From IMG/VR virus record IMGVR_UViG_2579778666_000001: DNA of 7,189 bases, one strand, 5' to 3'. This stretch comes from a virus (taxonomy: Duplodnaviria; Heunggongvirae; Uroviricota; Caudoviricetes). Position 1 is the stretch's first letter. Each line of letters begins with the position of its first letter. Positions 3,001 to 6,000 of the stretch are shown here, piece by piece. The position numbers were made by a program.

Positions 3001-6000
3001 CTTCGTCAGGGGTTTTGCCTTACCCTCACCCACCCAGCCGGCAGCACCGCCGGACACCTGGGCGTGCACACGGATATTGAACGGCACCTGACGAAGTGCA
3101 GGGATCCCGCCCTGACCAAATCGCCCGATAATGGTCTGGGGACGCAGGTAATCAATAAAGTCCTGTGCGTATTCCTGATATTCAGACAGGCTGCCTGCCC
3201 ACTGCGGATCCGTGGTGGTCCCCGCGCCCACTGCCGATTTCAGGACATGATGCAGACGACTGTCATCCGGATACTGACGACGGGCCACTTCCAGGGCTTC
3301 AGATCGGACGCCTTTAGCCGCAGCCAGCGATTTGGCAAAGCGGGCGAAGCCAATCCCCTTATCCAGTTTCTGCTCCACACGGATCACCGGCGCAGAAGTC
3401 ACCGCCACCACATCCCATTACCGGCCTGTTTCACCGGCTGTGCCGTGGCAGCCTTACCGGCTTCCAGCTCACGCAGACGCTTCAGGTGCGCATCCACCTG
3501 ACGGATTTCCGCTGCGGTGTTGTCGTAATGCTCTTCCTCCTCCACATCCAGCGTGCGCCCTTCCTCTGCGGCTTTGGTCATGACCTCCTCAAGGGAGGCT
3601 GCCAGCGCTGCACGCTTGTTTTCAAAACTTTTAATCTGTTCGCCAATATTCATTATGGTCTTTTCCTTATGAAAAACGGTTGTTGACTGTGCCGCAGCGC
3701 CGGCAGAAGATGCGATTTTCACCACCGGTTTCCGGTTGCCGGACGCGGCAGAAAACGGGCGGTCGTAAGATTTAATGGTCCGGATGGTGCATTCCGCATT
3801 CGCGGGCACGGTGACGGCAGACACCTCCATCAGTTCCCAGCGCAGAAAATGCAGTCCGCCTCCGTCCAGAAAGGTGTATTCATGGGGACGGAAGCCCACG
3901 GACAGCCCCCTGACCAGCCCGGTCTTAATGGCCGCCCAGGCCTCATCCAGCCGGGCAGCCAGTTGCGATGGCATATCCGGCACGGGCTTCGCCAGTGTTG
4001 CCGTGATTTCCAGCCCTTCGCTGACCCGGCGCACCGTACACTGCCCCACCGGGCGGGAATGGTCATGCTGCCAGAGAAACGGGATCGCACTGCCAAACTC
4101 CGCGCCCTCGGGCTCCAGGATGTCCCCATCCCGATCCGGAGAAGGCGTTGACGCAATCCCGGTGATCACCCGCTCATCCTCACTGAAGGATTTCACCGTC
4201 AGCAGGGAACAGGCCCGTTTAAGAGTCACATCAGCCTCCTGAAAATAAAAAAACCGCCGGAGCGGTTCATGATGGTTACAGTGTGAACAGGGTTATATGA
4301 AAAAAACCGCATATTCTTTCTTTTTTGGCTCCGGATTCAGGGACATCAGGGAGACCGCATTGAAGAGCGCCATCAGCGGGTCAATTTTTCCCCGTCCGCT
4401 GGCCTGTTTCGTGATAAGAATGGCATTACCTCTAGGCTCCACACGGGCATTACCAACACACCAGGCCATCAGGGGCTGGCCACCATGCACCAGCACCCCT
4501 TCAGCCAGTTTTCGCTCGGTGGTTTTAATGGCACCGCCCAGCTTCCAGCCCTGGCTTATCCCCACCACACTCTCATCGGGGATCCCGGCTTCCGCCAGTG
4601 AATCCAGAATCTGCCCCACGCCTGACGGGTCAATACCGATATGCTCCAGTAACTCAGCCTCATGAATACGACGCACATACTCCGCCACTTCCGCCGTGTC
4701 ATCCCCGACCCGACGGACAATGGTCATATCCCCACAGGCCACAAAATCCTGAAAACGGGATGCCTCACTCTTCCGTCTGACCACCGCGGTTTCATGTGCC
4801 CAGGCATGGCCCCAGCCCAGCCATTCGCGGGTCTCCCGGTCACGCCCAATCACATACATCCCCAGCAGATCATCCAGCCCTCCGCCGTCAATCCCCACCG
4901 TCACCACATCAGCACGCTGCAGAATATCGTCCAGGCTGACGCGCCTGCCCTGCTGCTCCCAGAAATCCGCCCCCGCCCAGCGGTCAGAACGCAGGGCAAG
5001 ACCAATTTCCACATTGGCATGTTTTGACATGAAGCCACGAAATGCTTCCTCACCAGCCTCCCGGGCTTTACGGTACTCCCGGTACAGAAAGGCCTCATCC
5101 ACTGAATAGCCGAGATTCGGATTGACCATGGCGAGGTTTTCCATCAGCAGGTGAGCCCCGCTTTCCACCATTTCAGGAGGGTGTTCAAATATCACCGGCA
5201 GAAAGTGCGGATCATGAATTTTGCCGTCGCGCACATCCCGGGCATACTGCAGTTTCTGTCTGAACACCCCGGCTGGCGGTTCATTCGACTGGGTGGTCGT
5301 ATACACCACAAACCCTTCCGGGCGGGAGGCAAGGCCGCCTATGGCTTCACGTAACATGTCCTCCGCCTTGTACTGTTTGCCAAACAGCCATAACTCATCA
5401 ATCAGCGTACCCACGGACTTGATACCGGACACCGTATTCGGATCGGCTGCCACCACCTTCAGGGTGGTGTCCGTCACCCGGTGGGTGATGGTCCGGATAT
5501 GTGTCTGCACCTGACAGAGGTCATCCAGATCATCGTCCCGTCGTACCATATCCCTGGCAGGATTGAAGGCGTTGGCTGCCACCTCCACAGTCGGGGCCAG
5601 AATCGTGTAACCCGCCGCCTGCCGCCAGTTCAGTAACAGCGCCGTCATCATGATCCCGGCGGCCAGTGTGGACTTGCTGTTTTTTTTGGGTATCAGAATG
5701 AACACTTCCTTGATATGGCGGACACCGGTCTGCGCATCGTAGGAGCCAAACAGAGCCGCCACCAGGTCAAACACCCACTGTGCACAGGACTCCCCGAACG
5801 TCGGGCTCCCCGGTGCATCCACAATCCGCAGTTGTTTAAAAATCGCCAGGGCATGTGCGGCCTGGTCCGGATAAATCGGAGCCGGAATAATCGACAGCCC
5901 CTTTTTCAGGCGCTCTGCCCAGTCCGGGCAGGCCGTGCTCCATACAGGTATCATCCGTTGCCCTCATTATCGTTATTCACCACCAGTCGTGGTGGTGGTG

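Follow-up and report, generated by a model that had tools for sequence, protein, structure and literature searches.

The 7,189-nt contig JMGW01000107.1 of draft assembly GCA_000687005.1 (IMG/VR record IMGVR_UViG_2579778666_000001; hereafter the window, meaning the contig at its full length) carries every one of its long open reading frames (ORFs) on the minus strand, and together these make up a phage head module. We focus on the ORF at 3399-4229, in which the original prediction saw a prohead protease gene with a scaffold gene nested in its 3' end, and on the capsid ORF that follows it. We find that the two are parts of one gene: window positions 4229-2293 (minus strand) are a disrupted copy of a fusion gene that a large family of siphophage head modules carries, lambdoid ones among them. 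The intact gene is a single 645-residue ORF that joins a protease of the S78 (HK97) family (residues 1-142), a linker (143-192), a delta, or scaffolding, domain (193-331) and an HK97-fold capsid body (332-645). The best explanation of the whole, which we hold with good though incomplete confidence, is that this fusion gene has been damaged in the window by a private one-base deletion, and that its intact form would give two products, the second from a nested in-frame start. Coordinates of all features are collected in Table 1.

The base missing at position 3413 is present, and the frame is open there, in every relative sampled or aligned. The junction region occurs in 1,249 of 5,426 complete Escherichia coli genomes, and all the matches listed carry it within a single coding sequence (CDS) named 'phage major capsid protein'. 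It also matches 93 phage records, including BP-4795, 2851, YYZ-2008, 1717 and many Stx1a, Stx2a and Stx2c phages; all of the 30 records listed give a 1938-nt match to the 1937-nt query, under annotations such as 'major head protein/prohead protease'. The gene is thus already known and annotated. The named Shiga toxin (Stx) phage genes, such as BP-4795 ORF56 and 2851 Gp17, are 96-98.6% identical to the window over 1,937 nt and are flanked as in the window by genes for HNH endonuclease, small terminase (TerS), large terminase (TerL), a small ORF and portal; each is one uninterrupted 645-residue ORF, whereas the window has ORFs of 276 and 372 residues. A viral scan with an enterobacterial alignment (A1; 80 IMG/VR contigs) returned only relatives 96-99% identical to its query, the intact protein P0002, and these served for counting intact copies; a viral scan with the single protein P0145 gave no matches. 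All 17 IMG/VR loci that were translated stay in frame through the junction (GNGNVA[A/T]VASAPVI), and 57 of the 67 IMG/VR loci with the internal-start motif discussed below keep the full 453 residues downstream of it.

The family is large. The 90% identity cluster of P0002 holds 9,916 member sequences, the truncated variants being singletons. When 1.8 billion representatives were searched exhaustively, more than 100 fused clusters (50% identity level) came up, about 640-680 residues long and 38-54% identical to the query. A protease-scaffold gene as originally predicted does not survive this comparison: the same frame continues into the capsid as a 645-residue ORF in all relatives, and the exact 276-residue protein is on record for JMGW01000107.1, the window itself, and for no other contig. 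The 276-residue ORF is a broken copy of a common annotated fusion gene, not a gene type. Some ORFs are longer still, with TerL or portal domains joined to the protease-capsid fusion (P0001, 1079 residues; P0123 and P0132, about 1090; P0004, 784), and represent either further natural fusions or gene calls that run through a frameshift or stop.

To describe the domains, we combined sequence profiles with the AlphaFold model of P0002, a fused homologue that is 99% identical and that equals the window over these residues save for a few substitutions. The protease ORF starts with GTG at 4229 behind an AGGAGG (Shine-Dalgarno, or SD, energy -10.3 kcal/mol), and residues 48-152 match Pfam Peptidase_S78 (MEROPS family S78, formerly U35) with E=6.6e-9 (36.5 bits against a cut-off of 21). 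Across homologues 38-78% identical, the candidate catalytic residues H55 and S110 never vary, and S137 hardly does. The modelled protease fold occupies residues 1-142, and two long helices, residues 195-223 and 229-261, stand apart from it with predicted local distance difference test (pLDDT) values above 90. The model therefore bears out the view that the C-terminal segment is a separate helical module of scaffold or delta type, carried on a disordered linker and not integral to the protease fold. A profile of 52 homologues, at its positions 198-261, matches 9gyi_B at residues 4-67 (domain E=2e-6); 9gyi_B is a stand-alone major head protein, that of EcCI2, a capsid-forming phage-inducible chromosomal island (cf-PICI). 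Because the match is to a stand-alone major head protein and the layout of the model agrees with it, the helical segment is, by profile and predicted fold, the N-terminal hairpin of a capsid delta domain.

The remainder of this domain lies beyond the break. In the model, the hairpin (195-261) is followed by a disordered loop (266-285) and three short helices (293-332), and then by a disordered N-arm and the HK97 fold; Foldseek matches the capsid body to the capsids of Bxb1, D3, HK97 and T5, with E down to 3e-15. The original prediction had taken the capsid ORF to have no delta domain of its own, in keeping with a scaffold supplied from the protease gene. That appearance is an artefact of the frameshift: the capsid ORF retains about 58 residues ahead of the mature protein, with three predicted helices, and seems to lack a delta domain because the break lies inside that domain, in the 266-285 loop. 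The HK97 capsid is cleaved at maturation between K103 and S104. K331 of the fusion and the AGTTxDPxWAG motif after it are invariant in alignment A1, and from this invariance and the likeness to the HK97 site we infer a maturation cleavage between K331 and S332.

Relatives in which the gene is not fused show where the capsid part begins. In the same exhaustive search, stand-alone capsid proteins of 456-472 residues can be aligned with the fusion from its residue 193 or 194 through to its last. The locus of one of them, P0262, has the same gene order, with TerL, a 209-residue S78 protease ending in TAA, 32 nt containing GAGGGA, a capsid gene with an ATG start, a small ORF and portal; this capsid gene begins ATG-MNYAEQISAFETKRAA, colinear with MNIGEQIKSFENKRAA of the window. 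Given these alignments and this layout, residues 193-645 of the fusion are, as judged by homology, a complete capsid precursor with an N-terminal delta domain. One further homologue, P0246 (376 residues, 56% identical; locus L087, 2922-4052), begins after the helical hairpin. It lies on a 4.1-kb contig beside an integrase and small genes, with no protease called, and the contig ends 68 nt past the capsid gene; the whole resembles an element of satellite type whose capsid gene lacks the hairpin.

The residue at which the unfused capsids begin brings us to the proposed nested start. The ORF, its internal ATG and the AAGGA 10 nt upstream of that ATG are all present where the original prediction placed them (Table 1). 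Taken alone, the internal site is unremarkable: its SD duplex of -6.2 kcal/mol resembles those at the TerL (-6.1) and portal (-5.8) starts, but is equalled at 13% of all ATGs on the strand. What makes it significant is entirely the comparison with relatives. Met193 and Asn194 are invariant in the enterobacterial homologues (A1), at the edge of the hypervariable linker, and the Met193 column holds M in 116 and V in 11 of 151 sequences. For the SD test we used 80 diverse fused metagenome loci from a scan with a diverse alignment (A2), 79 of them non-redundant. The homologous codon is ATG in 73 of these and GTG in the other 6. The mean SD:anti-SD energy at this codon is -7.6 kcal/mol, against -2.6 at 1,148 other in-frame ATGs of the same genes; the Mann-Whitney p of 7e-35 overstates independence, since the 79 loci are phylogenetically related. 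Energies of -5 or lower occur at 78% of the internal starts and at 18% of the other ATGs, and many loci have a full AGGAGG. Complementarity is concentrated in 10-mers whose last base lies 4-8 nt before the ATG, where it peaks sharply (-7.1 versus a background of about -0.7), and in 54 of 75 loci the internal SD is stronger than the best candidate SD of the protease start. At the site, both GC content and predicted mRNA structure dip, with a folding energy of -7.4 kcal/mol versus about -9 to -17 (mostly -12 to -16) in other 50-nt segments. The dipeptides behind the purine motif are many and diverse (EG, KG, KE, QE, RG), which suggests that the nucleotides themselves are under selection. We conclude that the in-frame ATG and its SD are very probably a real, conserved internal initiation site, as had been suspected from the window, and we think it probable that this start is functional across the family, which would make these genes nested ones, a capsid gene within a protease gene.

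What the start would produce is different from what was first proposed. An independent 84-residue scaffold was expected, but the nested frame runs for 453 residues through the capsid in intact relatives and is 84 residues long only in the frameshifted window. In the intact gene, then, the internal start would yield a delta-capsid precursor of 453 residues.

Beyond the relatedness of the 79 loci, several observations weigh against a working internal start. About 15% of the representatives have neither M nor V in the column, most of them with a Met a few residues away. In the enterobacterial clade that includes the window, the internal SD is just AAGGA and is weaker than the SD of the protease start, so the pattern of a stronger internal start is not seen in the window; and 13% of all ATGs on the minus strand score as well as the internal site. 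The modest SD of the window and this 13% also count for an alternative in which the fusion is as described here and the internal SD and ATG are idle, being either the relic of an ancestral capsid start or an SD-like pause that assists protease folding, so that every subunit would be a full-length fusion. The gene clearly descends from neighbouring protease and capsid genes, or switches to and from that state, so a relic is to be expected, and a shell with a protease on every subunit seems sterically possible by our own rough estimate (about 415 x 21 kDa, against some 26 MDa of DNA). A relic, however, should decay in a hypervariable linker, yet the start codon, the SD spacing, AGGAGG and an unstructured, AT-richer mRNA persist in lineages that are 38-50% identical. 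Nor would a pause site need a start codon, and the codon is always one in the 79 loci. We therefore consider an idle site unlikely.

How might a functional internal start operate? We propose, by analogy and from the sequence comparisons above, that the intact ORF is translated into two products. Initiation at the 5' GTG would give the full protease-linker-delta-capsid chain, which would co-assemble as a capsid subunit and so bring the protease into the procapsid. Initiation at the internal SD and ATG (Met193; 3653 in the window) would give the plain delta-capsid precursor that forms the bulk of the shell. After assembly, the protease would cut away itself and the delta domains, probably between K331 and S332.

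The window cannot be read in this way as it stands, because of the deletion. On the coding strand it has GGGATG where relatives have GGGAATG, at residue 273 of the fusion and hence inside the loop of the delta domain. The deletion produces the TGA at 3401-3399 and the out-of-frame tail MWWR; restoring one base gives a 645-residue ORF. The nearest complete E. coli genome (L001) is 96.6% identical across the window and has one 645-residue 'phage major capsid protein' covering both the protease and the capsid ORFs. Only two indels separate it from the window in 7.2 kb, both 1-nt deletions in the window (at 3413 and in the G run at 732-736), and the sole indel within 2293-4229 is at about 3412/3413. 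Five private differences cluster within 25 nt around the deletion, and neither the junction strings of the window (a 25-mer and a 22-mer) nor the flanking private substitutions had a match in the viral or the genome collections. In genomes with this module, it matches at several places (median 5 per genome). The deletion most likely reflects an error of sequencing or assembly, or a mutation that recently inactivated the gene, and not an evolved gene arrangement; given the clustered private differences and the several matching places per genome, a real mutation is no more likely than a problem of assembly or sequencing. As the window was sequenced, its internal ATG would yield only an 84-residue hairpin peptide, and the capsid body would have to rely on weak re-initiation at GTGA. 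We regard the split as a defect, not a design.

The opposite view takes the split to be natural: a protease-scaffold gene with a nested 84-residue scaffold and a separate, delta-less capsid gene, the hairpin acting in trans and the capsid gene coupled at the GTGA. It agrees with the ORF structure as sequenced, and the other head genes of the window are intact. The loop that is broken lies between two delta sub-modules, is predicted to be flexible and varies in length, so that it could perhaps accept a split; a capsid-frame GTG overlaps the new stop, as is classic for coupled genes; the portal/ORF59 pair next door exists in natural fused and split alleles; and P0246, on its satellite-like contig, is a capsid homologue without the hairpin. 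The intact head genes and the natural portal allele leave a tolerated split a small probability. Among thousands of sequences, however, only one draft contig of 7.2 kb has the arrangement, and its junction string and substitution pattern recur nowhere in the collections searched. The candidate capsid starts have no convincing SD (-4.9 to -5.7 kcal/mol), the MWWR tail is out-of-frame read-through and not a conserved C-terminus, and five private changes in 25 nt suggest a low-quality or collapsed-repeat region in a module that matches a median of five places per genome. We see a natural split as quite improbable. The specific version in which the split is real and tolerated, the hairpin acting in trans on a half-delta capsid both while tethered to the protease and as a lone 84-residue protein, has at best the same slim chance; if true, capsid assembly in this strain would stand, as a natural intermediate, between the HK97 type scaffolded in cis and the lambda/P22 type scaffolded in trans. 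Programmed -1 frameshifting, which would bridge the split to give both a protease-scaffold protein and the full fusion, can be set aside almost completely: the capsid frame is indeed -1 relative to the protease frame with a short overlap, but there is no slippery X XXY YYZ heptamer in GGT AAT GGG ATG TGG TGG CGG TGA, and no relative has such an arrangement, all being simply in frame.

Table 1. Features of the window and their positions, with the evidence or remarks for each.
Feature	Position	Strand	Remarks
Protease-delta-capsid fusion gene ('major head protein/prohead protease')	2293..4229	-	645 residues in relatives (single 1938-nt CDS); here two ORFs through a 1-nt deletion
S78 (HK97-family) prohead serine protease domain, residues 1-142	3804..4229	-	Pfam PF04586; AlphaFold 2 fold
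Disordered linker, residues 143-192	3654..3803	-	pLDDT <50 over residues 143-191; sequence and length hypervariable among relatives
Helical hairpin of capsid delta/scaffolding domain, residues 195-261	3447..3647	-	AlphaFold 2 helices; profile match
Second half of delta domain, on capsid ORF	3238..3411	-	Capsid-ORF residues 1-58 = fusion residues 274-331; three short helices
HK97-fold major capsid protein body	2293..3237	-	Pfam Phage_capsid (PF05065); Foldseek
Internal in-frame ATG (Met193)	3651..3653	-	Proposed delta-capsid precursor start; homologous to start codon of unfused capsid genes
SD-like AAGGA	3664..3668	-	10 nt upstream of internal ATG; TAAGGA pairs with 16S UCCUUA
Private 1-nt deletion (A, AA in relatives)	3413	-	4 private substitutions within 25 nt; in predicted disordered loop, residues 266-285
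GTGA overlap	3399..3402	-	New TGA (3401-3399) over capsid-frame GTG (3402-3400); possible re-initiation codon if split is real
HNH endonuclease	7170-6805	-	Intact
Small terminase	6514-5951	-	
Large terminase (TerL)	5954-4293	-	
Protease ORF under study	3399-4229	-	276 residues: protease, linker, first half of delta domain, 4 out-of-frame residues (MWWR), TGA
Capsid ORF	3411-2293	-	372 residues
73-residue ORF between capsid and portal	2248-2027	-	
Portal	2081-717	-	454 residues
Further gene downstream of portal	Runs off left end of window	-	

The surrounding genes belong to the same head module. The HNH gene lies directly upstream of the small and large terminase genes, and an HNH gene immediately before the terminase genes is the typical layout of HNH-dependent cos packaging. 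The order TerL, protease/capsid, small ORF, portal (717-5954 in the window; 772-7021 in locus L088) places portal after the capsid gene and not before the protease, and a distant unfused relative keeps this order too. In view of its HNH-TerS-TerL-capsid cluster and the match to 9gyi, we considered whether the window itself might be a cf-PICI satellite; we rejected this identity because L001, its closest E. coli relative, has the module within a full prophage of lambdoid type, tail and lysis genes included. The small ORF of 73 residues shares 55 nt with the beginning of portal; Pfam gave no match for it, and no SD can be recognised ahead of it (+0.6 kcal/mol). Relatives have a hypothetical protein of the same size annotated in this slot, and the distant loci L086 and L088 have an ORF of 66-76 residues there.

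The junction between portal and the next gene is polymorphic through a homopolymer (717-736, minus strand), which has five G in the window and BP-4795 and six in relatives. With five, the portal has 454 residues (stop at 719-717) and the downstream gene starts from the ATG at 720-718 in an ATGA overlap; with six, the two are fused into an 807-residue 'portal', and one E. coli genome is annotated as 'frameshifted' at this point. We considered the portal 'frameshift' at 732-736 as a second error and rejected this, BP-4795 having the same G5/ATGA two-gene allele. The post-portal protein, a homologue of BP-4795 ORF59, includes repeats of about 54 residues encoded by a tandem repeat at 113-504 (162-nt unit, 2.4 copies, 90% matches) and leaves the contig at its end.

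It is instructive to compare the fusion gene with better-known systems. HK97 gp4 and gp5 share with it the S78 protease family and an HK97-fold capsid with an N-terminal helical delta domain; in HK97 this domain stands in for a scaffold and is removed by the protease. The unfused relatives of the window gene have exactly the two-gene layout of HK97. The HK97 protease is a separate protein that is targeted non-covalently, whereas in the fusion gene it lies covalently upstream of the delta domain, and the gene order also differs, portal coming after the capsid gene in the window. Nested protease and scaffold genes are a second point of reference. Phage Mu has such a pair in I/Z, and lambda has another, with a protease of a different family from S78.

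In lambda C/Nu3, UL26/UL26.5 of HSV-1 (herpes simplex virus type 1) and gp17/gp17.5 of the archaeal virus HFTV1, the last recently shown by ribosome profiling, an internal in-frame start within the protease ORF gives an abundant assembly protein that shares the C-terminus of the rarer protease; this nesting fixes the ratio of the two proteins and directs the protease to the inside of the procapsid (bioRxiv 10.64898/2026.09.13.751334). The likeness to lambda C/Nu3 drawn in the original prediction is fair as to this nested logic and fails as to the product. In lambda, HSV-1 and HFTV1, nesting yields a scaffold, separate from a capsid protein that another gene encodes; here, to judge from the conserved reading frame, the nested product would be not a separate scaffold but the capsid precursor itself, delta domain and HK97 fold together.

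Protease-capsid and protease-scaffold-capsid fusions have been called unusual in several actinophage clusters, with little or no sequence similarity reported between such fusion groups and no internal start mentioned (PMC5513430, PMC7302621). These fusions have the same one-gene domain order as the gene described here. We found no description of an internal start in protease-capsid fusions in the literature searched, which missed most subscription papers. The conserved internal start is modestly novel and, as a proposal for the whole family, well supported by the comparative data.

These considerations bear on a puzzle that the published descriptions of such fusions do not address (PMC5513430, PMC7302621): How can a one-to-one fusion provide a head with the hundreds of capsid subunits, but only few proteases, that it needs? 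A simple answer would be a conserved ribosome-binding site within the ORF, at the ancestral capsid start, with one ORF, two products, and a protease that rides into the procapsid as a capsid subunit. The strategy of nested genes known from lambda, herpesviruses and an archaeal virus would then reach the capsid protein itself, with consequences for the annotation and the proteomic interpretation of thousands of prophages, including those of Stx-converting phages.

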